Of a stretch of DNA of 64,000 nucleotides, positions 14,695 through 37,661 are shown piece by piece. Within the stretch, counting starts at the first letter, position 1; each line of letters begins with the position of its first letter. Position numbers and translations under genes: made by a program. The stretch is from an uncultured beta proteobacterium. GTDB taxonomy: Bacteria; Pseudomonadota; Gammaproteobacteria; Burkholderiales; SG8-39. The stretch is taken from assembly GCA_963789885.1 (NCBI GenBank), contig CAWBNB010000033.1, forward strand, positions 29,770 through 93,769, in the 5' to 3' direction. The notes beneath the pieces were generated by a model. That model was given only the letters and a program-made list of their open reading frames with translations. It was not told where the DNA came from and ran no database searches.

Positions 14695-14703
14695 GGTGAC
14701 GCG

Positions 14704-18230: not shown

Positions 18231-18241
18231 GGAGACCCACG

Positions 18242-18529
18242 ATGCGAACCCTCGTTTTCGTTCTCGGGCTCTCGGTCGCGGCCGTGGCGCTGGCGCAGGA
18301 GTCGAAGGTCCAGCTCGTGGACGCGCCGGGCAAGGACAAGGCGATGCAGTGCATCGCGTGCCACAGCGTCGACTACATCCAGATGAACTCGAAGTTCATG
18401 GACAAGGCCGGCTGGACGGCGTCGGTCAACAAGATGATCAAGGTGTTCGGCGCGCCGATTCCGGAGAGCGACGTCGAGCCGATCGCGACCTACCTCGCGC
18501 AGCACTACGGCAAGGCGCCGGCGAAGTAG
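18242..18529 (+). CDS. sorB: Monohaem cytochrome c subunit of sulfite dehydrogenase (SorB-like)
   Basis: ATG 18242 lies 11 nt after the sorA stop, and GAGGAG overlaps that stop. Sequence MRTLVFVLGLSVAAVALA is a signal peptide, and CIACH is the haem motif. 95 aa. Confidence 0.75.
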   Translation: MRTLVFVLGLSVAAVALAQESKVQLVDAPGKDKAMQCIACHSVDYIQMNSKFMDKAGWTASVNKMIKVFGAPIPESDVEPIATYLAQHYGKAPAK

Positions 18530-18544
18530 GCGCGGGGCCTGGCG

Positions 18545-18570
18545 GCGCGGCGGGTCCGTCCCCGCCGCGC
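18545..18570. terminator. GC-rich hairpin between the convergent sorB and benE genes
   Basis: Perfect 10-bp stem GCGCGGCGGG / CCCGCCGCGC with loop TCCGTC. On the plus strand GTTTTGG follows a few nt after the stem. Confidence 0.4.
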
Positions 18571-18571
18571 G

Positions 18572-19795: not shown

Positions 19796-19801
19796 CGGCG
19801 C

Positions 19802-22563: not shown

Positions 22564-22625
22564 CGGGGGCGGCGAAGTTTAACCGGCTCGCGTGAACCGC
22601 TGCGCGTTCGGTCTAGAATTGCTCG

Positions 22626-23735
22626 ATGACCCTCCCGCCGCCCGCCGCACCGGGAATGCCGCTCGCCGAGGTCGATACCCCGGCGCTCCTCCTCGATCTC
22701 GACCGCTTCGAGCGCAACGTCGCGGCGATGGCCGAGGCGACGCGCGGGATCCGCCTCCGCCCCCATGCGAAGGCGCACAAGTGCCCGGAGATCGCGCTGC
22801 GGCAGATCGCCGCCGGCGCGGTCGGCGTGTGCTGCCAGAAGGTGAGCGAGGCGGCGGCGATGGTCGACGGCGGCGTTGCCGACGTGCTCGTGTCGAACGA
22901 GATCGTCGGGGGCGCCAAGCTCGCACGGCTTGCGGAGCTCGCGCAGCGCGCGCGGGTGAGCGTCTGCGTCGACGACGCCGGCAACGTCGGGGCGCTCGAC
23001 GACGCGGCGCGCGCCGCGGGCGTGCGGATCGACACGCTGGTCGAGGTGAACGTCGGGGCGAACCGCTGCGGCGTCGAGCCCGGCGAACCGGTGCTGCGCC
23101 TCGCGCGCGCGGTCAGCGGTTCACGCAATCTCCGCTTCGCCGGGATCCACGCCTACCACGGCGCCGCACAGCACCTGCGCTCGGTGGCCGAGCGGAGCGC
23201 CGCGATTGCGGTCGCGGCGGAGAAGGCGCGCCGCACGCGCGACCTGCTCGAGGACGAAGGCCTCGAATGCGAGAGCGTGACCGGCGCCGGCACCGGCAGC
23301 TTCCTCTTCGAGCGCGGGAGCGGCGTCTGGACCGAGCTCCAGCCGGGCTCCTACATCTTCATGGACGCGGACTACGGCCGGAACGCGTGGGAGGGATTCC
23401 CGGGCTTCGAGCAGAGCCTGTACATCTGGACGACGGCGATGAGCGTGCCGGCGCCCGGCCGCGTGATCGTCGACGCGGGGCTCAAGGCGCACAGCTTCGA
23501 CTCGGGGAATCCGCTCGTCGCCGGCTGGCCGGGCGTGGAGTACATCCGCGGGTCGGACGAGCACGGCGTGCTAAAGGTTCCCTCGGGCGCGCGCGCGCCG
23601 ACGCTCGGCGAGAAGCTCCGGCTGATCCCGGGCCACTGCGACCCGACCGTCAACCTCTACGACTGGCTGGTGTGCTATCGCGGCGAGCGCGTCGAAGCGC
23701 TCTGGCCGGTCGCGGCGCGCGGGGCGTTCTACTAG
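22626..23735 (+). CDS. DSD1-family PLP-dependent enzyme (D-serine dehydratase / D-threonine aldolase-like)
   Basis: 369-aa ORF with an alanine-racemase-N fold. The PLP-Lys context is RLRPHAKAHKCPEIA, and the C-terminal motif is GHCDPTVNLYDWL. Confidence 0.8.
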   Translation: MTLPPPAAPGMPLAEVDTPALLLDLDRFERNVAAMAEATRGIRLRPHAKAHKCPEIALRQIAAGAVGVCCQKVSEAAAMVDGGVADVLVSNEIVGGAKLARLAELAQRARVSVCVDDAGNVGALDDAARAAGVRIDTLVEVNVGANRCGVEPGEPVLRLARAVSGSRNLRFAGIHAYHGAAQHLRSVAERSAAIAVAAEKARRTRDLLEDEGLECESVTGAGTGSFLFERGSGVWTELQPGSYIFMDADYGRNAWEGFPGFEQSLYIWTTAMSVPAPGRVIVDAGLKAHSFDSGNPLVAGWPGVEYIRGSDEHGVLKVPSGARAPTLGEKLRLIPGHCDPTVNLYDWLVCYRGERVEALWPVAARGAFY

Positions 23736-23747
23736 CGGCCGGGCAGA

Positions 23748-24173
23748 CTACTTGGTCGCGGCGCGCCGGGGGACCGGTTCGAGGAGAAGGTCGCGCCTGG
23801 TCGGGTTGCCCTGCGTGATCACCGGCGCGGCCTGCAGCGTCGCGAACCAGACCTCGGCCCCGACGACGACCTTGGCGAAGATCCCGTACAGGCCTGACTT
23901 GTCGATCGCCTGCGCGGGGTACTCCAGCTGGTAGGGCCACGCGACCGGCTTCGGATCGAGGAACGTCAGCTCGGAAATGACGCTCGCGGACGTCATCGGA
24001 CGCGACAGGTCGACGAGCTGCAGGACCACCTTCGCGTTCTTCGGGAACGAGGTCGCACCGCGATAGTTGATCGTGCCGATCACGACGCTCTCGTCGCCGT
24101 CGGGGTTGGCGGAGGCGAAGGGCGCGGCGAGCGCGCAGAGGAGGGCGAGGAGGCTGGCGAACGTCCGATGCAT
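23748..24173 (-). CDS. YbaY-like exported protein
   Basis: Lies in ORF 23748-24281, with the start at ATG 24173. MHRTFASLLALLCALAAPFASA is a signal peptide. The YbaY-like body reads VVIGTINYRG..KVVLQLVDLSR... Confidence 0.55.
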   Translation of the reverse strand: MHRTFASLLALLCALAAPFASANPDGDESVVIGTINYRGATSFPKNAKVVLQLVDLSRPMTSASVISELTFLDPKPVAWPYQLEYPAQAIDKSGLYGIFAKVVVGAEVWFATLQAAPVITQGNPTRRDLLLEPVPRRAATK

Positions 24174-24312
24174 AGGATGGCCCGGTTCCCGAGAAGCGAT
24201 GGACGCTAAGTTAGTCCTCCCCCGCGGGTGCGGCAAGGAGATTCGCCGCCGTTCGTGGCGCCGGCGCGACATAATTCCCATGTCATAAACCGGGCCCGCG
24301 CCCGGCGGCGTG

Positions 24313-25509
24313 TCAGGCCGCCGCTTTCGCCGGCGCCGCCGCCGCGGCCGTCACCCGCTCGCCCGGGAACGCGAGCGCCGAGAGCAGCGTCAGGACCGCG
24401 ACCGCGGCGAGGAGCGCGAACAGCGGCTGGAAGTCGCCGTAGGTCCGGTGCACCCACGCGATCAGCGGCACCGCGGTCGCGCTCGCGCCGAACGAGACCA
24501 CGTAGCGCACCGAGTAGGCGCGCGCGCGCCACTCGTCGGCGGTGTAGCGCGCGATCATCGCGTCGTTGATCGGGATCTGGCCGAAGACGAAGAACATCAT
24601 CGCCACCGCGACGACCAGCATCGCGTAGCCGGAGAGCGAGCCGGCGGCCAGGAGCAGCGGCACCTGCATCAGCGCCACGACGACGAACACGCTCTTCACC
24701 GACTTCTTGTCCATCCACCACCCGACGAGGAGCTGGGCCATCGCGGCGATCAGGTAAGTGGCGCACACCAGCAGCCCGATGCCGAAGTTGGTGTCGGCGA
24801 GCGCGGCGAGCCGCTCGTCGAAGACCTTGGGCATCGACACCGTCGTCGCGTTGAAGATCAGGCCGCCGCAGGCGGTCGCTACGGCGACGACCAGGAACAC
24901 CCGCGCGAGCAGCGCGCGCGGGAGGCGCGCCGGAGGCTTCTTCACCGCGCCCTTGCCGAGCGCGATGCCCTGCGCCGCCCAGACGAAGCCGAAGCCGGCG
25001 GCGATGCAGAGCGCGCCCGGCACGAAGAACGCCGCGCGCCAGCCGGCGAGGTCCGCGAGCGCGCCGGTCAGCAGCGCGGCGAACGCGAGCCCGGCGTTGC
25101 CCCACACGCCGTTCACGCCGAGCGTGCGGCCGAGGTTGGGCTGGTTCGAGACGAGCATCGCGATGCCGACCGGGTGGTAGATCGCGGCGAACATGCCGAT
25201 CGCCGTGAGGCCGAGCGCGAGCTCGACCGGCGTGCGTGCGAACCCGGTCAGGATCGTGGCGCTGCCGATCCCGAAGAAGAAGAGCTTCATCATCCCGCTC
25301 CGGCTCCAGTGGTCGGCGAGCCAGCCGGCGGGAATCGAGAACGCGCCGAAGGCGATGAAGCCGCCGAGCGCGAGCGGGAGGAGGTCCGAGTACGGCCGCT
25401 GCCACGCCGCGCCGATCGCGAGCACCGCGGTCGGGAAGATCAGCATCGCCAGATGGTCGACGAAGTGGCCGACGTTCAGGAAGAGGTCGAGGCGGGCGGG
25501 GTTTTTCAT
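24313..25509 (-). CDS. MFS transporter
   Basis: Lies in ORF 24313-25560, with the start probably at ATG 25509 (MKNPARLDLFLNVGHFVDH...). It is a polytopic membrane protein of about 12 TM segments. Confidence 0.8.
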   Translation of the reverse strand: MKNPARLDLFLNVGHFVDHLAMLIFPTAVLAIGAAWQRPYSDLLPLALGGFIAFGAFSIPAGWLADHWSRSGMMKLFFFGIGSATILTGFARTPVELALGLTAIGMFAAIYHPVGIAMLVSNQPNLGRTLGVNGVWGNAGLAFAALLTGALADLAGWRAAFFVPGALCIAAGFGFVWAAQGIALGKGAVKKPPARLPRALLARVFLVVAVATACGGLIFNATTVSMPKVFDERLAALADTNFGIGLLVCATYLIAAMAQLLVGWWMDKKSVKSVFVVVALMQVPLLLAAGSLSGYAMLVVAVAMMFFVFGQIPINDAMIARYTADEWRARAYSVRYVVSFGASATAVPLIAWVHRTYGDFQPLFALLAAVAVLTLLSALAFPGERVTAAAAAPAKAAA

Positions 25510-25563
25510 GGTGCGGATCGTAGCGCGGCCGGCCCCGTCCGGCACGCGAGAGTCCGACAAGAT

Positions 25564-26331
25564 CTATCGCGGTTCGGCCAGGGCTCTGACGCGCATCACC
25601 ACGCCGGCGGCGACGAGGCCGGCGGCGAACGCCACCGGAAATCCGACGAGCACCCCCAGGGCGGGCAGCGCCGTCGCGACGACGAGCTGGAACGCGGCGA
25701 ACGCGAAGAGGCCCGACAGGAAGCCGGCGAGGAGCCGCACGGTCGCGTCGCTGCCGTGAAGGGCGAGCGCGAAGCTGGGCAGGACCGAGCCGGTGATCGG
25801 GAACGCGAGCAGGATCCCCGAGATGCGCGGGCCGAAGAAGCTCGCGCCGAGCGTCACCGCTGCCGCGATCGCCAGCGCGGCCGCCACGCGGACCGCCATT
25901 TCCGAGCCGGGAATCGGCACCGGTCCGATCGCGCGCTTTGCCGCGGGCAGCTTTGCGAGCATTGCGCCCAGCGCGAGCAGCGTGATGCCCGCGCCGGCGA
26001 GCGGCGGTATCGGAACCGCACCAAGCGCCGCGGCGGCTGCGACGAACGCCGCCCAGCCGAGGAGGAGCGAGGCGATCCACCCGAACCGCCGCGAAGCGTG
26101 CGCAAACACGAAGCAGTGGAGCGCTGCGGCGCCGGTGACCTGAAGCGTCGCGGCCGCGGCATCGGCGGCGAACTCCACCCCCTGGTCGAGCGCGAGGAAG
26201 ACGCTGATCGGCCCGGCGATGAGCGGCAGGCCGCTGATCCAGCCGGTCGCCGCGTGTCCCCACCGGCGTCCCGCGACGCTTGCGAGCCAGACGACGAGCG
26301 GGACGAGCGCGAGCTTGAGGAGGGCGGCCAT
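25564..26331 (-). CDS. Polytopic membrane protein of unknown function
   Basis: Lies in ORF 25564-26397, with the start at ATG 26331 (MAALLKLALVPLVVWLASVAGRRWG...). It is very hydrophobic throughout. A decayed copy of its 5' part lies at 31211-31417. Confidence 0.65.
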   Translation of the reverse strand: MAALLKLALVPLVVWLASVAGRRWGHAATGWISGLPLIAGPISVFLALDQGVEFAADAAAATLQVTGAAALHCFVFAHASRRFGWIASLLLGWAAFVAAAAALGAVPIPPLAGAGITLLALGAMLAKLPAAKRAIGPVPIPGSEMAVRVAAALAIAAAVTLGASFFGPRISGILLAFPITGSVLPSFALALHGSDATVRLLAGFLSGLFAFAAFQLVVATALPALGVLVGFPVAFAAGLVAAGVVMRVRALAEPR

Positions 26332-26489
26332 CGAGGGCGGGCGGGGCGGGGAATGATACCCGCTGAAGGCAGTCGCCCGCGATCGCGCTCGATGCACTGT
26401 GCATTGTCTTCCGCGCGGTGTTCGTCCGCGAGGCGTGAGTCTCGCGTGGCGGCGAGCGAGCGCTCGCCGGTGTTGGGCCCGCGGCGGGC

Positions 26490-27332
26490 CTACTTCATCG
26501 CGCCGCCGGTGATTCCGGCGATGAAGCGGTCGAGGAACATGTTGTACAGGATCGCGAACGGGATGCTCGTGATCAGGGCCGCCGCCATCAGCGATCCCCA
26601 GTAGAAGATGTCCCCGCGCACGAGATCGGTCGCCACGCCGAGGGTCACCGGCACCTGGTTTTCCGACGAGATGAACGTCAGCGCGTAGATGAACTCCTGC
26701 ATCGTCAGGGTGAACGTGAAGATCACCACCGTCAGGAGGCCCGGCACGGAAACGGGCAGGACCACTTTCACGAACGCTCCCAGCAGGCTACAGCCGTCCA
26801 CGATCGCCGCTTCCTCGATCGCCCGCGGGATCGACTTGAAGAAGCCCATCAGCAGCCAGGTGCAGAACGGTATCGTGAAGGTCGGATAGACGAGCACGAG
26901 CGACCACATGGAGTCCTGGAGGCCGAGGAGGGAGACCACCCGCGCGAGCGGCAGGAACAGCAGGGTCGGCGGGACCAGGTAGGTGAGGAAGATGCCGATT
27001 CCCAGGTTCTCCGCCTTCGTGCCGCCCATCCGCGCGAGGCTGTAGCCCGCCGGCACGGCGGTGAGCAGCGTGATGACCACCACGACCGTGCCGATCACGA
27101 GCGAGTTCTCGATCCAGCGGAGGAACGAGGTCTGGGTGAAGAGCAGCGTGATGTGGTCCAGCGTCGGCGGCTGATTGAACCAGAAGGGGTTGGACTCGAG
27201 ATTGTAGAGATCGCCGTCGCGCTTGAAGGCGGTGATGATCATCCAGTAGAACGGGAACGCCGCGAACACCAGCAGGCCGGCGAGGGCGGCGACGAAGCCG
27301 CCCTCCTGCGCGAGCTTCCGGAGGGTCGCCAT
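26490..27332 (-). CDS. Carbohydrate ABC transporter permease (MalG-like)
   Basis: 280-aa ORF with an EAA-loop region (PRAIEEAAIVDGCSLLGAF). Confidence 0.9.
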   Translation of the reverse strand: MATLRKLAQEGGFVAALAGLLVFAAFPFYWMIITAFKRDGDLYNLESNPFWFNQPPTLDHITLLFTQTSFLRWIENSLVIGTVVVVITLLTAVPAGYSLARMGGTKAENLGIGIFLTYLVPPTLLFLPLARVVSLLGLQDSMWSLVLVYPTFTIPFCTWLLMGFFKSIPRAIEEAAIVDGCSLLGAFVKVVLPVSVPGLLTVVIFTFTLTMQEFIYALTFISSENQVPVTLGVATDLVRGDIFYWGSLMAAALITSIPFAILYNMFLDRFIAGITGGAMK

Positions 27333-28256
27333 TCAGATCTCCCGCCGGCGCAGGAAGCGGAGGAGGAAGAAGGTCGCCACGAGCAGGAACGGGAAGAGGT
27401 ACAGGGAGATCGCGGCGCCCCGGCCGACGTCTCCGGACAGGATCCCCACCTGGAAGGCGAGGGAGCCCAGCACCTGGGTGCTGTTGGTCGGGCCGCCCTT
27501 GGTGAGCAGGTAGACGACGCTCATGTCGGTGAACGTGAACACCAGCCCGAACAGCATGGCGACCATCATGATCGGCAGGATCATCGGCAGGACGATCTGG
27601 AAAGTCCGCCGCCAGTACCCGGCGCCGTCGATGTAGGTCGCGTCGATGACCGCCTTCGGCACCGAGGTCAGGCCGGCGAGGAAGATGATGGCGGAGAAGG
27701 GAAACAGCCGCCACGCCTGCACCACGATGATCGAGATCATCGCGAGCCCCTCCTCGCCCAGCCAGTTCGGCCAGACCGAGGCCGGCACGAGGTGGGCGTG
27801 GACCAGCACCCAGTTGACCACGCTGTACATCGAGTCGAGCATCCAGCGCCAGGTGATCGCCGCGAGGGCGACCGGCACCGCCCAGGGCAGGATCAGCAGG
27901 CAGCGCGCCACCTTCCGGCCGGGGAATTCCCGCATGAGGAGCAGCGCGGTGATCTTGCCGAGAACGAGCGCGAGCAGGTTCGAGCCGATCGTGAACACGA
28001 AGGTGTTCAGCAGGGTGGTGCGAAAGATCTCGCTCTTGCTGACGGCGATGAAGTTCTGCAGGCCGACGAACGAGAAGCTGAGCGTGCCCAGGTTGTAGGC
28101 GCTCACGCTGTAGTACAGCGCCAGGAAGAACGGCACGGCGACGAGCAGCAGGATGTAGAGGATCGCCGGCGCCAGCAGCAGCGGGCCGAGCGCGTCCGCC
28201 TCGTCGAGGAAGAACCGGAAGCGGCGCTGACGCGGCGGGGCGAGGACGGATTCCAT
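27333..28256 (-). CDS. Carbohydrate ABC transporter permease (MalF-like)
   Basis: 307-aa ORF directly abutting the downstream permease, with an EAA-like loop (PKAVIDATYIDGAGYWRRTF). Confidence 0.9.
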   Translation of the reverse strand: MESVLAPPRQRRFRFFLDEADALGPLLLAPAILYILLLVAVPFFLALYYSVSAYNLGTLSFSFVGLQNFIAVSKSEIFRTTLLNTFVFTIGSNLLALVLGKITALLLMREFPGRKVARCLLILPWAVPVALAAITWRWMLDSMYSVVNWVLVHAHLVPASVWPNWLGEEGLAMISIIVVQAWRLFPFSAIIFLAGLTSVPKAVIDATYIDGAGYWRRTFQIVLPMILPIMMVAMLFGLVFTFTDMSVVYLLTKGGPTNSTQVLGSLAFQVGILSGDVGRGAAISLYLFPFLLVATFFLLRFLRRREI

Positions 28257-28260
28257 CGCG

Positions 28261-29295
28261 TCACCTCCGCGCGTTCGGCAGTCGCTTGCCCGAGGCCTTG
28301 TCGAAGTACCTCAGGTCCTTCGGGTGCACCGTGAACGGATAGGTTTCCCCTTCGCGCAGCACCGGCTCCGCGATGTGCGACGAAAGCCGTGCGGTGTACT
28401 CCGCGCCGTTCGTCTGACTGTCGATGTAACCGTAGAGGACGCGCTCGTTCCCCAGGTACTCGATCCGCTGCACCTTGAAAGCGTAGCGCGCGGGCTCGAT
28501 CCCCTTCTGCTGCAGATCGCGGTGGAGGAAGTTCTCCGGCCGGAAGCCCTCGATCCGGCCGTCCCGCTCGAGGAGGTTCATCGGCGGCGCGCCGAGAAAC
28601 GCGGCGACGAAGGTGTCCGCCGGCTCCTCGTAGATCTCGCTCGGCGTGCCCACCTGCCGCAGCCTGCCGTGCTCGAGCACCGCGATCCGGTCGCCGAGCC
28701 CCATCGCCTCCACCTGGTCGTGCGTGACGTAGATCGTGGTGGTGCCGATGCCGCGCTGGAATTCCTTGAGCTCGTTGCGTGCGCTCGTGCGCAGCTTGGC
28801 GTCGAGGTTGGAGAGCGGTTCGTCGAGCAGGAACACCGTGGGCTCGCGCACCAGGGCGCGCGCGAGCGCCACCCGTTGCTGCTCGCCGCCGGAGAGCTGG
28901 CGCGGCTTGCGGTCGAGCAGGCGGGTGATGCCCAGGATGCCGGCCGCCCACGCGACCTTCCGCTCGATCACGTCGCCGGGCGTGCGCTGGGTGCGCAGCG
29001 GGAACGCGATGTTGTCGCGCACCTTGAGGTGCGGATACAGCCCGTAGCCCTGGAACACCATCGCGATCCCGCGCGCCCGCGGCGGCATGTCGTTGACGAC
29101 CTGGTTGCCGATGAGGATCTCGCCGGAGGTCGGCTTCTCCAGACCCGCGATCATGCGCAGGATGGTCGTCTTGCCGCAGCCGGAAGGGCCGAGGAACACC
29201 ATGCATTCGCCGTCCCGGACGTCGAGGTCCACGCCGTTGACGGCGGGGACATCGCCGAACAGCTTGCGCAACTGCTTCGCAACGACTTGCCCCAT
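28261..29295 (-). CDS. ABC transporter ATP-binding protein (MalK/UgpC-like)
   Basis: 344-aa ORF with Walker [10 protein letters not shown], signature [15 protein letters not shown], Walker [12 protein letters not shown] and a C-terminal regulatory domain. Confidence 0.9.
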
Positions 29296-29387
29296 GCGGT
29301 GCCCTCCGGCCTCCAGCGCGGCTGCGCTCGCAATCGGCCGGCTTCCGCGCGCGGGAGGAAGCCGGCGGCGACTGCCTCAGTGCCGGT

Positions 29388-30764
29388 TCAGGCCTGGCCC
29401 CCCCACTTGGCGAAGATCGCCTTGATCTCGGTGTCGGCCCATTTCATCGCTTCTTCGGGCGACATCTTCCCGGTGGCGGCGTTGGCCATCATGTCCGGGA
29501 TGATGTAGTTGTTCGCCACCTCGTCGATCGCCGGCGTGTCGGGGCCCGGGTAGCCGTAGATGTCGTGCCACTCGTTCACCGTCTCGAGCACCTTCAGCTT
29601 GTCGCGCGGATGCGAGGTCGGGTCGTCCGAGAGGATCGGCATGGGCATGGGAATGAGCTGCTCGAATACCGGATGGTTGTAGCCGGTACTCGCCATGAAG
29701 CCGTCCTTCCAGTTGGCGGCGTAGTGGCGCAGGAACTGGTTCGCCGCGTCGATGTTGCGGGCGAACTTCCAGATGATGTAGGAGTTCGGGGAGCACGCCG
29801 CCAGTCGCCGCACCGGCCCGGCCGGCGTCTTCCACACGAAGATCTTGTCGGCCAGCTCCGGATTCGATTCCTGTGTCGACCGGTAGGCGGAAATCGGGTT
29901 GTGGATCCAGGAGGCCCGTCCGGACTGGATGTAGCGGTTGTTGGAAGCGTCGTCCCAGGACAGGACCTCGTTGGTCATCGCGTCCTTGTACAGCGCGACC
30001 ACGAACTTGATCGCCTCGAGCGTCTCCTTGGAGCTGAGCGTCACCCGGAGCCCCGACTTGTCCTGTTCGACGCCGCCGTACGACCACAGGACGCTCCGCC
30101 AGCTGCTGTTCGCGTCCTGGTGGTGGGCGAGGCCGATCCCGACCGGATGTCCCTTCGCCTTCAGCTTGGCGCCGCCGACCCGGATGTCCTCCCAGGTGTC
30201 CGGCTTCATGCCGATCTCGTCCCACAGGTCCTTGCGGTACAGGCCCGGGAAGCTGATGTAGTAGTCGGGGAAGGCGGTCCAGTGCCGCGTCTCGGTGTCG
30301 TACGCGAGGTTCCGGCCCACCGGCCCGACCTTGCCGTACTTCTTCTCGAACTCCGCCATGAGGGGCGACAGGTCGACGGTCGCCCGACGGTAGAGATGCG
30401 GACCGCCCGCGCCGTTGATGCCGAAGAGATCGTGGCCCGCCTTGGCCGAGACTTCGGCCGCCATCCGGGCCGGAATCTCGAGATGGGGGATGTGATCCAC
30501 GGTGGCCTTCACGCCGTTGGCGGCGCCCCAGTCCTTGACGAACTGGTCGAACCACTTGTCGTAGGCCGGGACGAAGTGGCTCCACTGGATGATCTTCAAC
30601 TCCTTGTCCGCGGCATGCGCGTTGCGGGCGAAGACGAGCGGCCCGACCCCCGCCGCGGACAGGGCGGCGATCCCGGCGCCTGCGCCGGCGGACTTTAGAA
30701 ATCTACGGCGGGTCGCTCGCGTGGTGCGGACGTTCCTGGTGCCGCTCGACTTCGGCTTAGCCAT
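29388..30764 (-). CDS. Extracellular solute-binding protein (family 1, sugar ABC) with Tat-type leader
   Basis: 458-aa ORF with leader TRRRFLKSAGAGAGIAALSAAG and a strong SD (AGGAGGAGGA) upstream of ATG 30764. Confidence 0.85.
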   Translation of the reverse strand: MAKPKSSGTRNVRTTRATRRRFLKSAGAGAGIAALSAAGVGPLVFARNAHAADKELKIIQWSHFVPAYDKWFDQFVKDWGAANGVKATVDHIPHLEIPARMAAEVSAKAGHDLFGINGAGGPHLYRRATVDLSPLMAEFEKKYGKVGPVGRNLAYDTETRHWTAFPDYYISFPGLYRKDLWDEIGMKPDTWEDIRVGGAKLKAKGHPVGIGLAHHQDANSSWRSVLWSYGGVEQDKSGLRVTLSSKETLEAIKFVVALYKDAMTNEVLSWDDASNNRYIQSGRASWIHNPISAYRSTQESNPELADKIFVWKTPAGPVRRLAACSPNSYIIWKFARNIDAANQFLRHYAANWKDGFMASTGYNHPVFEQLIPMPMPILSDDPTSHPRDKLKVLETVNEWHDIYGYPGPDTPAIDEVANNYIIPDMMANAATGKMSPEEAMKWADTEIKAIFAKWGGQA

Positions 30765-30993
30765 GCTGAATCCTCCTCCTAGTGGAAGCGGGATCGCCCC
30801 GCGTGCGAATCGTCATCCCGCGTGTGTGTCTCGCTGCAGCGAAAACGGCCGTCGTGTCCTGCGCTCGACCGAGTCGGGATGGACGATTTGGGTGGCAACG
30901 TTCGCGGCCCGAACTCCTTTCGCCGACAGGTGCGGGATGCTCTCGAGCGGCAGCATCATCCGTGCCACGGGCGCATGTTCTTGAATTTGCGCA

Positions 30994-31212
30994 ATAGACG
31001 GCAACGCCCGAGCGGGTGTGCGCGGCCCAGAACAACCGCTCCGCCCGCGAGATGGCCAATTTCAGCCACCCCGGCGCACGGGGAGTCCCCGGCCACGATG
31101 GGGCACGCGGCCACGAGCGGCCTTGGGGTCGTGTAAGTCGCTCGGGCGCTAAGGGCCGCGTCGAGATGCGCGCGCTCTACCCGCGGCGCGACGTCGCGGG
31201 CACGCTGCCGAA
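30994..31212 (+). pseudogene. Decayed 5' fragment of an AraC-family regulator gene (duplicate of 33931-34228)
   Basis: Segment 31154-31212 (GGCCGCGTCGAGATGCGCGCGCTCTACCCGCGGCGCGACGTCGCGGGCACGCTGCCG) aligns with 34169-34228 of the intact gene (GRVEMRTLYLRRDAAGTLP). Weaker, indel-ridden similarity extends back through the start-codon region (ATA at 30994 against ATG 33931) and about 100 nt further upstream. Confidence 0.55.
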
Positions 31213-31417
31213 CGCCGCGCAGCCGAGAAGCGGCGCGGACCACCACTTTGAATCGCCTCGCGGCGTGCGCGAACGCGAAGCAATGGAGCGCCACGTGATC
31301 GGTCCGGCGATGAGCGGGAGGCCGCTGATCCAGCCGGTCGCGGCGTGTCCTCACCGGCGTCCCGCTACGCTTGCGAGCCAGACGACGAGCGGAACGAGCG
31401 CGAGCTTGAGGAGGGCG
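31211..31417 (-). pseudogene. Decayed 5' fragment of the membrane-protein gene (duplicate of 26045-26331)
   Basis: Segment 31211-31417 aligns with 26045-26328. An example run is CTGATCCAGCCGGTCGCGGCGTGTCCTCACCGGCGTCCCGCTACGCTTGCGAGCCAGACGACGAGCGGAACGAGCGCGAGCTTGAGGAGGGCG. There is an internal deletion of roughly 75-80 nt and the start codon is lost. Upstream similarity continues to about 31455. Confidence 0.7.
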
Positions 31418-31652
31418 CGGGGCGGGGCGGCGCTTGATACGCGCTCAATATGACGCCGCACGAACACTTCGGCGGTAGGGTGATCGAGCGACGGCTTTCC
31501 GCGAGACACGCCGAGCTCATAGGCCAAACGGCCGATTCGCGCGCGGGCGCGCTCTCTAAGATGAAACTGACGTGACGTCGCTCGCGGACGTCGGTCCGGT
31601 TTTTCTCAAGTGCTGTCGCCGTTACGCCACGGTCGGCGAGCGCGGAGGCTCG

Positions 31653-32990
31653 ATGAGCACCCCCAGCCTGATGGTCACCGTCGAGCCCGCTCTCTCAGGC
31701 GCCGTGATCTACGGGCCCCTTGCGGCGGGCACGACATTCGGCGATGAGGCCGCGCAACTCTCCTTACGCCTATGGATCAAGAACAACGAGACGGCGGCGG
31801 TTGTCGTCAACACGATTGCGCTTTCGTTCGTTCCGCCACCCGTCGTTGATCCCATCGCGATCGCCGTCAACATCGGCATCGCTTCAGGGGAAACAAAGTT
31901 GTGGAACTTCGCCACCGCGGACAACGTCATCCTTCCGGACCCGCCTCCGCCCGTGTTCACGTTGGCCGCCTGGTGCAACGGCTTCAGCGATCCTACGACG
32001 CTCACCTTACCTTTGGACCCGCACGTCAATCCGGTCGCGGGTTCGGCGTATCTGTTTCCTGCCCGAATCGACGATCTCAGGGACGGCGAGTTCTGGCAGG
32101 GACGCAGTGGGGTCCACTCTCCCGCTGGCGGTGGCGTACAGCTCTTCGGATACGACATGGCTGTCGTGAGCTACGACGGGCAGAGCGACAGCTGGACTGA
32201 TCTCCTTCCAGGGGGCTCGGACAGCAAGAATGAGGATCATCGTCTGTGGGGCAAGCCGGTCTACGCGATGGCCGACGGCACGGTGGATTCGTGGGCGAAC
32301 GAGGAGCCCACCAACCCGAGCCCTCCCGCGGACCTCTCGCCTCCCGTGCCCGTCGAGGGCAACCACCTCTACATCCAGCACGGTCCGGAATTGGTGCTCT
32401 ATGCGCACTTCCAGCCCGGCAGTCTCAACGGTGACCTGATGGTGAAGGGCGCTCCGGTCAAGGCCGGAGACTTCCTCGGCAAGGCGGGCAACTCCGGCAA
32501 TTCGACCGGACCGCATCTTCATATCCACGCGACGAAAGGGACTGCGCCCTGGCAGGGCCCGCCACAGCCGATCACCTTCCGCGAGATCCACGTCGTCGAC
32601 CGCGCCGCACTGGCGCCGCCAAGCCCCGAGGGCGCTTGGGTGAAGGTCAAGGGGCGATGTCTTCCCGCGGTCACGTCGCTGATCTGGCCGACTGCGAACA
32701 TCCCGCCGCAGTGGCGCCGCGGGATGTCTTCGGACCGCGCGATCGACCCACTGGCGCTCATTTTGAGCGGCGAGGTCTACGTAAAGCTCACGCTGCCGGA
32801 TCCTGGACCGGAAGAGGTGGTGAGGGCGCAAATCCGCGCACTGCTCCGCACGGCGTCGCCTCAGGACAGGCGCCGCGCGCTCTACCGCGCACGCACGATG
32901 GGGCGGTACTTGCGGCTTGTCGAGGACGAGCTTGCGGCCCTAGGCGCAGCGCGCGAGAAGCGTGTGGATATCGAGTCACCGAGCGACTAG
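31653..32990 (+). CDS. Leaderless M23-family metallopeptidase, LasA/beta-lytic (M23A)-type catalytic core with unassigned N- and C-terminal regions
   Basis: Lies in ORF 31572-32990. I chose the start at ATG 31653 because GGAGG sits at 31644-31648. Catalytic set: H155-x12-D168 (GVHSPAGGGVQLFGYDMA), VYAMADGTV, LYAHF, GNSGNSTGPHLHIH. There is no signal peptide, and G+C is lower than in the flanks. Confidence 0.8.
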   Translation: MSTPSLMVTVEPALSGAVIYGPLAAGTTFGDEAAQLSLRLWIKNNETAAVVVNTIALSFVPPPVVDPIAIAVNIGIASGETKLWNFATADNVILPDPPPPVFTLAAWCNGFSDPTTLTLPLDPHVNPVAGSAYLFPARIDDLRDGEFWQGRSGVHSPAGGGVQLFGYDMAVVSYDGQSDSWTDLLPGGSDSKNEDHRLWGKPVYAMADGTVDSWANEEPTNPSPPADLSPPVPVEGNHLYIQHGPELVLYAHFQPGSLNGDLMVKGAPVKAGDFLGKAGNSGNSTGPHLHIHATKGTAPWQGPPQPITFREIHVVDRAALAPPSPEGAWVKVKGRCLPAVTSLIWPTANIPPQWRRGMSSDRAIDPLALILSGEVYVKLTLPDPGPEEVVRAQIRALLRTASPQDRRRALYRARTMGRYLRLVEDELAALGAAREKRVDIESPSD

Positions 32991-33002
32991 GGGCTTGGTG
33001 GT

Positions 33003-33830
33003 ATGGGGATCGAGCTCACCAGCGGCGGATCGAGTGGCGCTTCCGGCTCTCTTGGGCCGGCATCCAGCATCGCGAAGTCCCTGCACTGGGGCATTCTCGC
33101 GAACGGCCAGATCGGGGAGCTCGCGTACTCTGCCGACGCCGAAGGCCGGGTTACGGGAACGATATTTGGCGACCAGATCATCGGCTTCTGGGACGGCGGG
33201 GCCGGGAAGCTGACGTTCGCCCGGATCCCGAAATCGAAACAGCCGAACTCCTACCAGTTCTATACTGGCTACCACTTCTCCTGGTCGGGGCCGGGCGGGA
33301 CCCTGCGCGAGGGACTCGCCGGTTCATTCGATGCATTCGCGGGAAGCGGGGGTACCTACGAGCAGGTCACGTTCGGCTGGTACGGACTGCTGCACCCGTC
33401 GCCGCCCTACGATGGGTCGATCCTGTTCGAGGATATGAAGGCACCGGACACATTGGGAGGCAGCTTCATCAACGCGAACGGGTACCGTGGAGCAGGAAGC
33501 GTCGTGGCGCAGCCAGTGACGATCTCCTTGGATCCGCCAAAGTATGGCTATGTAGTCAGCGGCACGATATTCGGCGACGAGGTGAGCGGGTTCGCGGTGG
33601 GAGGACGCATGGCGTTCGTCAGGATTCCACCACCGGGCAAGGTCGCTCCCGTCGGCGGCGACGGAAGAAAGCCGGATGCCTATCAGGCGTACAGTGGATT
33701 TACCGCTGTGCTCGCGTTCGGCAATGTCGAGATTCGCGTGGTCGCTGGCTCGTTCGTGGCGTTCGCCGGAACCTTCGCGACCCCGCAACGCAGCGTCTAC
33801 GGATGGTACGGCGTTCGGGGGGCGCCATAA
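33003..33830 (+). CDS. Hypothetical protein with two internal repeats of about 110 aa (unknown family); probable partner of the M23 peptidase
   Basis: 275-aa ORF starting 12 nt after the upstream stop. The N-terminus is Gly/Ser-rich (SGGSSGASGSLGPASS) and lacks a leader. Conserved blocks are duplicated (see the repeat feature). Confidence 0.7.
   Translation: MGIELTSGGSSGASGSLGPASSIAKSLHWGILANGQIGELAYSADAEGRVTGTIFGDQIIGFWDGGAGKLTFARIPKSKQPNSYQFYTGYHFSWSGPGGTLREGLAGSFDAFAGSGGTYEQVTFGWYGLLHPSPPYDGSILFEDMKAPDTLGGSFINANGYRGAGSVVAQPVTISLDPPKYGYVVSGTIFGDEVSGFAVGGRMAFVRIPPPGKVAPVGGDGRKPDAYQAYSGFTAVLAFGNVEIRVVAGSFVAFAGTFATPQRSVYGWYGVRGAP
33075..33818 (+). repeat. Intragenic tandem duplication (2 x ~110 codons)
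   Basis: Repeat 1 reads ..GRVTGTIFGDQIIGF..GKLTFARIP..YQFYTGY..LAGSFDAFAGS..VTFGWYGL. Repeat 2 reads ..YVVSGTIFGDEVSGF..GRMAFVRIP..YQAYSGF..VAGSFVAFAGT..SVYGWYGV. Confidence 0.8.
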
Positions 33831-33930
33831 GCGTTGCAGGCTCTGGGAGCACTTGCGGATCACCTCGCAGATGCGGAAGATTGCAATCGGGGGGTGGGCG
33901 CGGCGCATTCTGCGGCGCTTCTCGCGCACA

Positions 33931-34704
33931 ATGGCTCGCAGAAGCACCAACGTCGCCGACTACATGCGCGTGCCGCGTCCGATCGCGGCGATGGCAAAGG
34001 ATTTCCCGCACGGCCACCACATCCCGGTCGACCGCCACGAGCGCGGACAGCTCGTGTACGCCGCGTCCGGGGTGATGACCGTGACGACGCCGCACGGCAC
34101 CTGGGTCGTGCCGCCGCAGCGCGCGGTCTGGGTGCCGCCGCGCACCGACCACGAGAGCCGGATGTCGGGTCGCGTGGAGATGCGCACGCTCTACCTGCGG
34201 CGCGACGCGGCGGGCACGCTTCCGCGCCAGTGCTGCGTGATGAACGTGCCGCCACTCCTGCGCGAGCTGATCCTCGCGGCGACCGAGATGCCGCTCGTGT
34301 ACGACGAGCGCGGACGCGACGCGCGCGTGATGCGGCTCATCCTCGACGAGCTGCGGCGGGCGAGCGATCTGCCGCTGCATCTGCCGCAGCCCGCCGATCG
34401 GCGCCTCGCGCGCATCTGCGATGCGATCCTGAAGGCGCCGGCCGATGCGCGGCCGCTCGAGGCGTGGGCGGACACGGTCGGCGCGAGCACGCGCACGATC
34501 GCGCGCCGCTTCCGGCAGGAGACCGGGATGAGCTTCGCCGCGTGGCGGCAGCAGGCGCGGCTGCTCGAGAGCCTGCGGCGGCTCGCCGCGGGCGAGGCGG
34601 TGACGAAGGTGGCGCTCGACTGCGGCTATGCGAGTCCGAGCGCCTTCGGCGCGATGTTCCGGCGCGCGCTCGGCGTGACGCCGAGCGCGTATTTCGCGCG
34701 CTAG
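33931..34704 (+). CDS. AraC-family transcriptional regulator (cupin-type N-domain + HTH)
   Basis: Lies in ORF 33676-34704, with the start at ATG 33931 (MARRSTNVADYMRVPRPIAAMAKDFPHGHHIPVDRHERGQLVYAASGVM...). The C-terminal AraC HTH reads TIARRFRQETGMSFAAWRQQARL...CGYASPSAFGAMFRRALGVTPSAYF. Confidence 0.85.
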   Translation: MARRSTNVADYMRVPRPIAAMAKDFPHGHHIPVDRHERGQLVYAASGVMTVTTPHGTWVVPPQRAVWVPPRTDHESRMSGRVEMRTLYLRRDAAGTLPRQCCVMNVPPLLRELILAATEMPLVYDERGRDARVMRLILDELRRASDLPLHLPQPADRRLARICDAILKAPADARPLEAWADTVGASTRTIARRFRQETGMSFAAWRQQARLLESLRRLAAGEAVTKVALDCGYASPSAFGAMFRRALGVTPSAYFAR

Positions 34705-34892
34705 CGCTGCTCGCACCGCTCCGCGGGAACGCCGCGCTTCCGCGTGCGCCGACCCCGCCGGCTTCGCAGCTCCTCGACGCCCGCCTCGCGCGCGGCGCCT
34801 TCGACATCGCGTCCCCGGGTAGCGGATTCACGGCGAGCACCGACGATGCCGAGCGCGATCATGGAAGCGGCGAGGAATTCGGGAGTCAGCAT
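34701..34892 (-). CDS. Small hypothetical protein (63 aa; N-terminal hydrophobic segment, basic tail)
   Basis: AAGGAG lies 6 nt upstream of ATG 34892. GC3 is about 80%. Sequence MLTPEFLAASMIALGIVGARRE.... Its stop overlaps the convergent araC-family stop. Confidence 0.35.
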   Translation of the reverse strand: MLTPEFLAASMIALGIVGARRESATRGRDVEGAAREAGVEELRSRRGRRTRKRGVPAERCEQR

Positions 34893-35095
34893 GGTTCGCT
34901 CCTTTGGTTGCGGTTTCCGGGAGGGTCCAGCGGAAGTCGGGGACTTGCTGCACGGATCATGCCTACGGCGCTTTACGCCCGCGTGAACCGAGGATGATGA
35001 TTGCGTAACGTCGCCGCACAGCGACAGCGCCAGAGCCGCGGCAGCGAAAGCGCCGAGGAATCAGTCGCGTCCGCCGTCGGCCTCAGCCGACAGCA

Positions 35096-36058
35096 TCAGG
35101 CGATCGAGTCGAGCGCCTGCCGGAGATGAGCGATCGAAGTGTTGCCGCCCGAGAGCACGAGCCCGACCTTGCGGCCCGCAAGCTCACCGCGCAGCCGATA
35201 GGCGCACGCGAGCGTCGCGCCGGCCGCGGACTCGGCGAGCGTGTGACAGCGCTCGATCCACCACGCGGTCGCGCGGCGGATCTCGTCTTCGCCGACGACC
35301 TGGAAGTCCGCGAGGTGCTCGCGCAGGATCGCAAGCGTGAGCTCCGCCGCGCGCCCGGTGGAGAGGCCCTCGGCGAAGGTTTCGTTCGGCCGCGTCTCGA
35401 TCCGCCCGCTCGTCCACGAGTCGTGGACGGCGGGCGCCGCAGCCGCCTGCACGGCGATGACGCGAACGCGCGGATTCAGGTGCTTCGCCGCGATGCAGGC
35501 GCCGGACGCGCCGCTGCCCAGCCCGACCGGCACGATGATCGCCTCGAGCCCGGGCTCGTCCTCGATCATCTCGACCGCGTACGTGCCGACGCCGGCGATG
35601 AGCGCCGGCTCGTTCGCGGAGTGCACGAAGCGCATGCCGTCGCGTGCGGCGATCGCCTGCGCGTTGGTGACCGCGTCGTCGAACTTCGCACCGCGCTCGG
35701 CGATCTCGGCGCCGAAGCCGCGGATCGCCGCGACCTTGCCGGGATTCGCCCCCTCCGGGACGCAGATCACCGCGCGCACGCCGAACCTGCGCGCGCTCCA
35801 GGCGATCGACTGGCCGTGATTCCCGGTGCTCGCGGTGACGACGCCGCGGCCCCGCTCGTCGCTGCCCATGCCCGCGATCAGGTTGACGCCGCCGCGCACC
35901 TTGAAGACGCCGACCGGCTGGTAGTTCTCGTGCTTGACGAACGCCGCGCAGCCGAGCAGCTCGTCGAGCGCGGGATAGCGGTGCAGCGGCGTGCGGGCGA
36001 GATGCGGCGCGATGCGCTCGCGCGCGGCGAGGATGTCGGCGTAGGTCGGCGGCTGCAT
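35096..36058 (-). CDS. PLP-dependent threonine/serine dehydratase family protein
   Basis: Forms the C-terminal 320 aa of ORF 35096-36790, with the start at ATG 36058 (MQPPTYADILAARERIAPHLARTPL...). The PLP-Lys context is HENYQPVGVFKVRGG, followed by the glycine loop VPVGLGSGASG. Confidence 0.85.
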   Translation of the reverse strand: MQPPTYADILAARERIAPHLARTPLHRYPALDELLGCAAFVKHENYQPVGVFKVRGGVNLIAGMGSDERGRGVVTASTGNHGQSIAWSARRFGVRAVICVPEGANPGKVAAIRGFGAEIAERGAKFDDAVTNAQAIAARDGMRFVHSANEPALIAGVGTYAVEMIEDEPGLEAIIVPVGLGSGASGACIAAKHLNPRVRVIAVQAAAAPAVHDSWTSGRIETRPNETFAEGLSTGRAAELTLAILREHLADFQVVGEDEIRRATAWWIERCHTLAESAAGATLACAYRLRGELAGRKVGLVLSGGNTSIAHLRQALDSIA

Positions 36059-36075
36059 GGCGGACGGCGGACGGG

Positions 36076-36459
36076 CTAGCCGCCGGCGAGCTTCGCCACG
36101 ATCTTGCGCTCGTAGTACGGGTTCCGCGCGAACGCGCGGGAACGCCGGAGCCCGAGCCGGGTGCGCAGCAGCGCGAGCTTCGTGAGCGCGTGCCGCCGCG
36201 CCACCGCGTCCCCGATCCCCGCGAGCTCGGCCTCGAGCTCCGCGATCTCCCGGCGCTCGAGCACCTCGGGCGGGACGAAGCCGGCGTTTTTCAGGATCCG
36301 GTACGCGAGCCTGACTTCCGGCGGGACGAGGGCGTCGTCCTCGAGCGCGAGCGGTCGGCCCGCGCCCGGCAGGTTGTCGAAATCGCCGCGGCGCAGCGCC
36401 TCCTGGATGCGTTCTTCCACCAGGGCGTCGGGCGAGAACACGGGCGTGTAGCGGGACAC
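36076..36459 (-). CDS. DUF1992 (DnaJC28-like) domain protein
   Basis: 127-aa ORF with the motif EERIQEALRRGDFDNLPGAGRPL...AYRILKNAGFVPPE. Confidence 0.75.
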   Translation of the reverse strand: MSRYTPVFSPDALVEERIQEALRRGDFDNLPGAGRPLALEDDALVPPEVRLAYRILKNAGFVPPEVLERREIAELEAELAGIGDAVARRHALTKLALLRTRLGLRRSRAFARNPYYERKIVAKLAGG

Positions 36460-36620
36460 GCCACGAGCTTAGCAGCCCGGCCGGCCGCCGGAAACCCGCC
36501 GCCGCACGCGGGCATGGCGGGCGGGAACTGGCGCTCCGCCGGCCTTCGGGACACAATGTGGAGGAGATCCTGGAACAAATCCCCGCTCGACCGGTCTCTT
36601 CTTGGCACGGAGGTGCGCTC

Positions 36621-37661
36621 ATGACGCCGCGCTCGCTCGTCCGCTTCCTCTTCTTGGCCGCCCTTGCCTGTGCGTGGCCCGCGGCCGCGCAGATGCCCGC
36701 CGACAAGCCGCTCGCGAAGGAGCCGGCCGCCGACGACAAGGAGATCGACCAGCGGATCGCCGACACGCTGTCCGCCGTGGTGCGGGTCAAGATGCGAGCG
36801 GTTCCGGACGCACGCTCGAACGCGACGCTCGGCGATACGCGCGAGGGCAGCGGGATCGTGATCGAGCCCGGCTACGTCCTCACGATCGGGTATCTCGTGA
36901 TCGAGCCCGATGCGATCGAGGTCACGACCGTCAACGACCGCACGCTCCCCGCCACGCTCGCCGGGTACGATCACCCGACCGGCTTCGGTCTGCTCAAGGT
37001 CCAGGGCGACCTGGGGGTCAAGCCGCTCGCCATCGGCGAGTCGGCGGCGCTCGCCGTGCGCGAGCCGGTGATCGTCGTCTCGCACGGGGGGCGCGAAGCG
37101 GCGAGCCTCGCCTACGTGATGTCCAGACGGCAGTTCACCGGGAGCTGGGAGTATCTCCTCGACAGCGCGATCTTCACCTCGCCGCCGACGATGAGCTGGG
37201 CGGGCGCGGCGCTCGTCAACCGCCAGCTGCGGCTCGTCGGGGTCGGCTCGCTGCTCGTGCGCGACACCGTCGAGCCGGGCACGCCGCAGCCCGGGAACAT
37301 GTTCGTGCCGACGGATCTCCTGAAGCCGATCCTCGCGGAGCTCAAGGCGAACGGCCGCACCGCCGGCCCGCAGCGGCCGTGGCTCGGGCTCAACACCGAG
37401 GAGGTCCAGGGCCGGCTGCTGGTGAGCCGGGTGTCGCCGGAGGGACCGGCGGCGCAGGCGGGCGTGCGGCGGGGCGACGTCATCGTGAGCGTCGCCGGGG
37501 AGCCGGTGAAGACGCACGTCGAGCTCTATCGCAAGGTGTGGTCGCTCGGGGCGGCCGGCGTCGAGGTACCGCTCCAGGTCTCGCAGGGCGTCGACGTGCG
37601 CGACGTGCGCGTGAAGTCGATCGACCGGTCCGAGTATTTCAAGAGCAAGCAGGCACTGTAA
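36621..37661 (+). CDS. S1C-family (trypsin-like) serine protease with PDZ domain
   Basis: Lies in ORF 36558-37661, with the start at ATG 36621 after GGAGGTG. Signal peptide MTPRSLVRFLFLAALACAWPAAA. Motifs: GSGIVIEPGYVLT, GAALVN, and PDZ-like VSPEGPAAQAGVRRGDVIVSVAG. Confidence 0.8.
   Translation: MTPRSLVRFLFLAALACAWPAAAQMPADKPLAKEPAADDKEIDQRIADTLSAVVRVKMRAVPDARSNATLGDTREGSGIVIEPGYVLTIGYLVIEPDAIEVTTVNDRTLPATLAGYDHPTGFGLLKVQGDLGVKPLAIGESAALAVREPVIVVSHGGREAASLAYVMSRRQFTGSWEYLLDSAIFTSPPTMSWAGAALVNRQLRLVGVGSLLVRDTVEPGTPQPGNMFVPTDLLKPILAELKANGRTAGPQRPWLGLNTEEVQGRLLVSRVSPEGPAAQAGVRRGDVIVSVAGEPVKTHVELYRKVWSLGAAGVEVPLQVSQGVDVRDVRVKSIDRSEYFKSKQAL

Follow-up and report, generated by a model that had tools for sequence, protein, structure and literature searches.

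A decayed junction of regulator and membrane-protein gene fragments in a betaproteobacterial cargo interval, possibly the join of a tandem duplication

The stretch analysed, referred to as the window, comprised 64,000 nucleotides (nt) of an uncultured betaproteobacterium (contig CAWBNB010000033.1, positions 29,770 to 93,769). In it, an intact membrane-protein gene (M) and an intact AraC-family regulator gene (A) are separated by an interval in which an internal fragment of A (A') is fused to a minus-sense fragment of M (M'). This fusion, A'/M', is a recombination scar of an ordinary kind, most likely non-functional, and involves no new mechanism. With moderate confidence, it was interpreted as the join of two tandem copies of an M-A core, the inner genes of which were fused and then decayed, with a gene block in each of the two spacers. 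By open reading frames (ORFs) and Pfam, the order was M, ABC operon, A'/M', an M23 peptidase gene with a gene X, and A (Table 1), which agreed with the layout given by an earlier interpretation made from the letters of the window only (the sequence-only reading).

Structure and decay of the scar

Self-BLAST of positions 30500-31900 against the window, with an ungapped repeat search to resolve the blocks, returned significant matches, as the sequence-only reading had expected of a self-alignment. Positions 31296-31448 matched 26205-26367 (87% over 163 columns, E 7e-53), positions 31153-31210 matched 34167-34224 on the same strand (51 of 58 identical, 88%; E 7e-15), and positions 31204-31291 matched 26036-26124 (75-77%, E 1e-11). 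Without gaps, the 5' block of M' (31296-31417) matched 26205-26326 at 116 of 122 positions (95%), and DNA upstream of M was matched at 24 of 29 positions (31420-31448 with 26339-26367). Taken as a whole, M' (31211-31440) copied, in minus sense, the initial ~288 nt of M and the DNA upstream of it. At the protein level (tblastn), A' read GRVEMRALYPRRDVAGTLP against GRVEMRTLYLRRDAAGTLP of A. The translation of M' ran through ALLKLALVPLVVWLASVAGRR, a stop and GHAATGWISGLPLIAGPI, and after a frame break continued as …ALHCFAFAHAARR.

Both fragments combined homology to functional genes with truncation and disabling mutations, as pseudogene remnants do. A' lacked nt 1-236 and nt 295-774 of A, and M' lacked nt 289-768 and nt 128-207 (80 nt) of M. 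In addition, M' had lost ~12 nt including the ATG, and its codon 24 was changed from TGG to TGA (31351-31353). At the join (31209/31210), comparison of scar, A and M sequences showed that A and M share CG only. The match of A' to A, its fusion at about 31210 to a minus-sense copy of M, the deletion and lost ATG of M', and the similarity continuing to the promoter side had all been proposed from the sequence and were confirmed.

The same was not true of a weaker similarity that had been proposed to carry A' back through its start codon into upstream sequence (30885-30994 against 33845-33931). The local alignment score of this pair was 7, below the shuffle mean of 7.9, and 446 of 500 shuffles and 98% of real-sequence controls scored at least as high. 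The only match of A by tblastn in 30700-31600 was to aa (amino acids) 161-183 of the long ORF. A chaining (cheap-gap) alignment of 30765-31152 against the intergenic region (IGR) plus nt 1-236 of A was no better than real-sequence controls. Positions 30765-31098 were the orthologue of the intergenic region upstream of the solute-binding protein (SBP) gene in related contigs (78% identity). Because the leftward similarity was at chance level, A' consists of a 58-nt internal piece only. The 54-nt filler between the SBP-upstream region and A' had no significant match to A, M, the fetched loci or the remaining window. Against all fetched loci, neither the filler nor the M23 leader gave a match, and the X-A spacer matched locus L016 (described below).

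The join ran from coordinate 34224 to coordinate 26044, with A' and A both on the plus strand and M' and M both minus-sense. Such a head-to-tail topology is what two successive M…A units would give at their boundary, with the end of the first against the start of the second. Full-length M stood on the left and A on the right, and a copy of the M-proximal spacer end (IGR-left) stood beside M'. Join points of tandem duplications are classed by microhomology (bioRxiv 10.64898/2026.05.22.727201), and the present one fell into the non-homologous class (0-4 nt microhomology, no long flanking repeat). It resembled the inner join of such a duplication in that a unit end (A nt 294) met a unit start (M nt 288) in direct orientation over 2 nt. 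It differed in that the contents of the units were not the same (ABC operon vs. M23 plus X, in inserts of 4.7 kb and 2.5 kb), similarity ended ~7 nt after …GATAC, and the inner copies were cut to 58 and ~230 nt. The scar pieces were 5-25% diverged, which makes the structure an old fixed remnant and not an unstable amplification.

The scar shared with gene vestiges a lost start, a premature stop, internal deletions and no detectable homologous ORF. It was unlike typical vestiges in that two unrelated genes were fused tail-to-tail and in that the larger fragment kept a codon signature of past selection. An ORF running across the scar (31016-31453), which is annotated as a gene on a single short contig, had no homologues in 5.8 billion proteins, and is therefore not a conserved chimeric gene. 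Judged by its sequence, the scar itself is most likely inert (no start codon, stops and frame breaks, no ORF homologues, no RNA family), and ORFs over 30956-31527 should not be called genes in annotation.

Past coding constraint was evident in M'. In all orthologues of M, the first 122 nt were highly conserved and the next ~90 nt variable, and M' behaved alike (95% vs. ~75%). In the conserved block, the six differences were all private to M', with M agreeing with the relatives L003, L004, L005 and L008 at all six sites. All six were at third codon positions, five synonymous and one nonsense (122 nt; pN/pS, the ratio of non-synonymous to synonymous divergence, 0.08; probability under neutrality ~0.001-0.008). 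Changes confined to third positions imply that the M' lineage was translated and selected for most of its separate history and disabled later. A' had four synonymous and three non-synonymous changes (pN/pS 0.31). By distances, M' was placed with the group of the window and L003-L005, after the split of L008, on a long private branch. In the scar pieces, synonymous divergence was 0.15-0.25, equal to or greater than inter-haplotype divergence and ~10 times the strain background.

The M/A interval in relatives and strains

A search of M against 185,579 species-representative genomes returned 12 loci, mostly from metagenome-assembled genomes (MAGs) of betaproteobacteria/Burkholderiales. M orthologues in 11 betaproteobacterial MAG loci had 67-92% aa identity, with the MFS gene always following M; the M protein was identical on the contigs L001 and L002. 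In L003, L004, L005, L008 and L010, A and M were adjacent and divergent (PALP … <-A, M-> MFS->), with a spacer of 41 nt (L003-L005), ~160 nt (L008) or ~67 nt (L010), and with no ABC operon, M23 or X. This ancestral adjacency of M and A came from the comparison with relatives that the sequence-only reading had proposed. In the orientation of the window, the spacer of L003 was CAT-CGAGGGCGGGCGGGGCGGCGAATGATACC/CTCGCGCGCGCA-ATG. The M side of the window matched it through …GATACC (26361), and the A side matched it from CTCGCGC… (33920). Since M and A are back to back in five more distant relatives, the whole of 26362-33919 (7558 nt) is secondary and lies at one ancestral spacer point. M' bore its own copy of the spacer, …CGGGGCGGGGCGGCGCTTGATACGC, to ~31440. 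The interval therefore held two M-proximal spacer copies, with a different gene block after each, both starting past …GATAC.

Guanine plus cytosine (GC) content was 0.71-0.74 in MFS, M, A and PALP and 0.733 in the scar, and 0.664 in the ABC block and 0.646 in the M23-X block.

The scar and the M23-X block were polymorphic among near-identical strains. L001 (89.7 kb) and L002 (14.5 kb) had the order MFS<- M<- ABC operon<- (406 nt) ->A; M23, X and the scar were all absent. They were 97.9% identical to the window over 15606-31098 and 99.3% over 33920-37555, and had 74 nt in place of 31099-33919 (2821 nt). Three short contigs comprised M23 plus X only, with inferred ends at the edges of the 2821-nt segment, as in a graph bubble. 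Conversely, the 1.08-Mb contig L017, from another sample, was 99.1% collinear with window positions 21687-42943, scar included. A 2.9-kb contig from a third sample contained exact M23 and X, and its span (~31042-33984) was inferred from gene coordinates alone.

Synonymous divergence between the window and L001 was 0.004-0.03 in PALP, M, MFS and the permeases and 0.105 over SBP. In A, it was 0.08 in codons 1-100, then 0.012, then 0. In this single pairwise comparison of two haplotypes, synonymous divergence (pS) was 0.08-0.17 beside the island and 0.004-0.03 farther out. The SBP-upstream DNA was homologous and 78% identical. Absence of the segment in near-identical strains and the flanking divergence tract together suggest that it segregates as an old haplotype through homologous recombination.

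Within SBP (29500-30764), differences from the island-less haplotype numbered 17, 4, 12, 3 and 16 per 250 nt, and non-synonymous changes were concentrated in codons 1-100 and 301-400. This patchiness suggests several nested recombination events and not a single tract.

The island-less haplotype had an unbroken …TGATAACC-TCGCGCGCC-ATG beside A, and …ATGATACC also lay next to its ABC block on the M side. Together with the borderline match to A' given below, these sequences hint at a doubling older than the split of the haplotypes and at a later entry of M23-X into the second spacer. The sequence-only reading had dated the M23 islet relative to the duplication; the scar alone does not give such a date, and the unbroken sequence is the sole hint of one. 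The only candidate for a target duplication was the 8-nt TGATA(A)CC that borders the ABC block of L001 at either end; a doubled intergenic region explains it equally well. The 74-nt replacement in L001 had a borderline match to the end of the filler plus the first 20 nt of A' (14 of 2000 shuffles, yet 1-6% of real-sequence controls). As a decayed M', the 74 nt were not significant against M or M'.

The M23-X block was also found next to A in a diverged locus, L016 (2.3 kb), at 83.6% nt identity overall (M23 87% aa, X 76% aa, first 41 codons of A 100% aa). Its right junction was the same as in the window, …CCT/CTCGCGCACGATGG. L016 is diverged (~16%) and yet shares the order M23-X->A, which makes the linkage old.

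Pfam, NCBIfam and repeat searches found no recombinase, terminal repeats or att/attC-like sites in the M23-X segment. Pfam and NCBIfam searches of all ORFs between 25.5 and 34.7 kb, with tRNA, repeat and Rfam scans, found no integrase, transposase, terminal repeats, tRNA or Rfam family in the interval or at the edges of the cargo blocks. No mobile-element marker was present in the interval, although X, which has no family assignment, might still be one. The same flanks occurred empty (L003-L005, L008, L010), with ABC only (L001, L002), with ABC plus M23-X (window, L017) and with M23-X by A (L016). The proposal of a cargo hotspot was supported by these states; its further element, an exchange of cargo inside a duplicated unit, was not supported by any evidence. 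Exact-protein look-ups of A and SBP of the window returned no record.

Hotspots free of mobile genetic elements are proposed to diversify through recombination in flanking core genes (2017, PMC5635113). The present interval was like them in its variable content, conserved neighbours and lack of mobile-element genes, and the raised flank divergence, from one pairwise comparison, is suggestive of such recombination. Unlike them, it occupied just one position of the 41-nt divergent promoter region that separates the regulator from its presumed target, and it kept a scar of doubled flanks. Doubled-flank scars and single promoter points are not presented as typical in that work. The locus is a worked example of the evolution of such hotspots in uncultured soil Betaproteobacteria, with one block still polymorphic in near-identical strains.

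The locus is also a nucleotide-resolved record of the separation of a regulator/target pair by 7.6 kb. M23-X now separates A from its ancestral promoter region, and the ABC operon separates A from M-MFS, its presumed target, so that the wiring of the regulator must have changed. As the ancestral spacer was only 41 nt, the A promoter must overlap IGR DNA, and the second spacer copy with M' may, on this sequence argument, keep a residual role as the old A promoter ahead of M23-X-A. Within 30700-34000, no site matched the sigma-70 consensus. On the plus strand, at 31585-31598 and 55 nt 5' of the M23 start, there is a terminator-like hairpin that has a T-run (CGGACGTCGGTCCG GTTTTTCTCA). Lying between M' and M23, it argues, if anything, against read-through, and it could be a relic of the old context of the block or a regulatory element.

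Proposed history and its alternatives

In the tandem-duplication history, the ancestral arrangement was MFS<- M<- and ->A with a shared 41-nt control region. The M-A core would then have doubled in tandem within the same lineage, with both copies functional for a time. An illegitimate deletion or join at the 2-nt microhomology would have connected nt 294 of A in unit 1 to nt 288 of M in unit 2, killing the inner A and M and leaving the outer M and A intact. Decay would have followed through the 80-nt deletion, the 12-nt deletion of the ATG, the stop codon and the loss of nt 1-236 of A'. Foreign blocks of lower GC would have entered at the same spacer point of each unit, the ABC block after IGR-left of unit 1, and M23 plus X between IGR-left' and IGR-right of unit 2, directly ahead of A. 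The resulting 2.8-kb segment of scar, M23 and X now segregates among near-identical strains and is probably swapped in and out through ordinary homologous recombination of the neighbouring SBP and A genes, with no element-encoded recombinase. Doubling of a cargo-free or single-cargo M-A core, with the blocks entering separately, is simpler than exchange. Of the old tandem duplication followed by fusion that the sequence-only reading had proposed, the topology, the existence of an M-A unit and the third-position signature spoke in favour; its single-lineage origin was weakened, in that unit 2 may be DNA of a diverged lineage.

Several observations weigh against this history. No sampled genome had two intact tandem M-A units or an intact A-> <-M pair. 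It takes two independent insertions within the same ±3 nt, and no site-specific mechanism was found. The evidence for a scar remnant in L001 was borderline only. The L016 contig stops inside M23, with the left flank of M23-X beyond the contig end. The private branch of M' was ~2-3 times the divergence among the window, L003, L004 and L005, and L003-L005 had no trace of a duplication; if the duplication occurred in this lineage, they must have collapsed it cleanly. A' was equally distant (7/58) from the A genes of both haplotypes, so that a simple collapse model and a simple two-allele model both fit imperfectly. A' being no nearer to A of L001 than to A of the window, a collapse that left L001 with a chimera of the two former A copies was considered and rejected.

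It is possible, but on balance unlikely, that there was no long-lived duplication, and that an ABC allele and an M23-X allele from related lineages were concatenated, M' and A' being fragments of orthologues. On this account a piece reaching from 5' M through IGR-left, M23, X and IGR-right to 5' A was closed into a circle or linked end-to-end, with A nt 294 meeting M nt 288, and a single homologous or unequal crossover into the ABC-allele chromosome gave M-ABC-A'/M'-M23-X-A in one step. Purifying selection on M' and A' would need no two functional copies per genome, and the differing cargo of the units would need no exchange. Single-cargo states were partly seen (ABC only in L001/L002; M23-X by A in the diverged L016), the raised-divergence tract in the flanks of the island fits imported DNA, and synonymous divergence was similar in magnitude in the scar pieces (0.15-0.25) and in the tract (0.08-0.17). 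However, M' was closest to the resident M and shared its states relative to L003-L005 and L008. The 5' 290 nt of A were 2.8% from the island-less allele and A' was 12% from both, which the simplest cross of an L001-like with an L016-like parent does not predict. M directly upstream of M23-X has been verified in no lineage, and the …TGATA(A)CC end of IGR-left seemingly occurs twice in the island-less haplotype as well. Homology-facilitated illegitimate recombination or Campbell-type integration of circularised foreign DNA (the term occurs in PMC6382021) is a mechanism for comparison. As there, one end of the segment lay in A homology and the other was a non-homologous intergenic break that replaced 74 nt. 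The difference is that a simple one-anchor replacement cannot make A', and a circular or sister-chromosome intermediate would be needed.

A one-step partial tandem duplication of ~630 nt (5' M, 41-nt IGR, 5' A), with M' and A' pseudogenes from birth and the cargo added later, is improbable. It takes the fewest rearrangements, a head-to-tail join with 2-nt microhomology is what non-homologous tandem duplication yields (bioRxiv 10.64898/2026.05.22.727201), and the third-position share of 54% of 35 differences fits one selected and one neutral branch; six of six private changes at third positions in the outgroup-polarised 5' block of M' would nevertheless be very unlikely if it was never translated. 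There is very little likelihood that M23-X is a mobile element that had captured A'/M' at an earlier site and inserts site-specifically at …GATACC/CTCGCGC…. Sharp presence/absence polymorphism, the start of two different blocks at one intergenic position, foreign GC content and M23 homologues (74-80%) in unrelated contexts would fit such an element. Against it, no integrase, transposase or relaxase was found, X was unlike any recombinase family, there were no terminal inverted or direct repeats and no tRNA, M23 relatives elsewhere had no X, M' or A', and the flank divergence tract favours homologous recombination. Similarly remote is the idea that …GATACC/CTCGCGCGC… is a site-specific docking site for blocks without recombinase (ABC, M23-X and an earlier dctQ block) served by a trans-acting or host function; it would amount to integron-like or Xer-like capture without a local integrase, with the doubled M-A core as a by-product. 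Chance similarity or mis-assembly is scarcely credible. The genome is GC-rich and the weak upstream match was chance, but the self-BLAST matches had E-values of 7e-53, 7e-15 and 1e-11 within a window of only 64 kb, and the blocks were collinear and in the correct codon frames. The layout was the same in the independent contig L017, and the contig from the third sample was consistent with it by gene coordinates.

Coordinates and further observations

The intact A encodes a member of the AraC/XylS family, with a C-terminal double helix-turn-helix and an N-terminal cupin-type ligand domain (PF12833 6e-24, PF00165 2.4e-12, PF02311 1.1e-06).

Table 1. Features of the M/A interval and its neighbours in window coordinates.
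Feature	Position	Strand	Basis or remark
MFS transporter gene	24313-25560	-	Pfam; downstream of M
M, intact 255-aa membrane-protein gene	25564-26331	-	ORF; no Pfam/NCBIfam family
IGR-left, M-proximal 30 nt of ancestral 41-nt M/A spacer (CGAGGGCGGGCGGGGCGGGGAATGATACC)	26332-26361	.	L003/L004/L005 match up to …GATACC, divergent beyond
Cargo block 1: dctQ-like pseudogene fragment, 4-gene ABC uptake operon, 334-nt upstream region	26362-31098	-	Pfam
dctQ-like pseudogene fragment of cargo block 1	26379-26477	+	
ABC permeases	26490-27332 and 27333-28256	-	Pfam
ABC ATPase	28261-29295	-	Pfam
Solute-binding protein (SBP)	29388-30764	-	Pfam
54-nt filler, SBP-upstream region to A'	31099-31152	.	Right end: borderline match to L001 74-nt replacement
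A', internal fragment of AraC-family gene, A nt 237-294, codons 80-98	31153-31210	+	No start, no leftward extension
Join point, A nt 294 to M nt 288	31209-31210	.	CG microhomology; repeat families D2 and D10 meet
M' inner block, M nt 288-208	31211-31291	-	~75% identity to M
M' deletion point	31292-31295	.	M nt 128-207 (80 nt) replaced by 4 nt; alignment with M and 10 orthologues
M' 5' block, M nt 127-6	31296-31417	-	95% identity; in-frame TGA 31351-31353
IGR-left', second M-proximal spacer copy, ends …GCTTGATACGC	31418-31440	.	~12-nt deletion took M' start codon
Cargo block 2: 212-nt leader, M23, X, 89-nt spacer	31441-33919	+	Pfam PF01551 for M23
M23 peptidase gene	31653-32990	+	Pfam PF01551
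Gene X, two-repeat protein, no family	33003-33830	+	
Strain-variable segment, 2821 nt	31099-33919	.	In window and L017; 74 nt instead in L001/L002 (blastn break points)
IGR-right (CTCGCGCACA)	33920-33930	.	L003 and L001 homology restarts at 33920
A, intact AraC-family gene, 257 aa	33931-34704	+	Pfam HTH_18, HTH_AraC, AraC_binding
PALP enzyme gene	beyond A	-	Pfam

X encodes 275 aa with two internal repeats (…GRVTGTIFGD.I.GFWD…F.RIP…Q.Y.G…LAGSF.AFAG…WYG). It matched no family in Pfam or NCBIfam, and a search of 5.8 billion proteins yielded only five homologues. The most distant of these had a signal peptide and a CLIPPER-domain gene as neighbour. Relatives of M23 with 74-80% identity (L018-L021, L038) stood in unrelated contexts without X, M or A. 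They occurred alone in differing neighbourhoods in L018 (JGI 3300082261, 8946-20000), L019/L020, L021 and L038, and one relative adjoined genes of Tc-toxin/RHS type (TcA_TcB_BD, SpvB, TcdB_toxin_midN). This suggests that the M23 peptidase gene is often transferred and possibly antibacterial cargo.

The dctQ-like fragment matched 62288-62391 (75% identical, E 7.5e-12), in a DctQ-like TRAP small-permease gene at ~62.0-62.5 kb of the window. It covers ~100 nt from the end of the spacer to the stop of the ABC permease, translated as AIALDALCIVFRAVFVREA followed by a stop against AIVVETLCLVFLAVFVYEAC, and was identical in L001 and L002. It is a third gene scar in the M/A interval and may be a relic either of earlier cargo or of a former neighbour of the ABC block.

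The MAG that holds both L003 and L007 (MFD02809.bin.2.319) had a second, paralogous PALP-M-MFS neighbourhood, with M ~66% identical; L006, L009 and L012 were further loci of this kind. It had no AraC gene, and ~600 nt of other DNA were in its position. A paralogous copy in the same genome means that the whole neighbourhood was duplicated at least once at a larger scale.

In L017, M (3913-4248) was called with 111 aa and M23 (10001-11290) with 429 aa, and 51 gaps were present relative to the window. The shortened calls are probably long-read homopolymer or indel errors and not real pseudogenes.

An exact 18-nt repeat was present in the SBP-upstream region at 30938-30955 and, 9.8 kb apart, at 21125-21142 (E ~0.006), and its second copy was conserved in L001, L003 and L005. 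It could be due to chance or be a shared regulatory motif.

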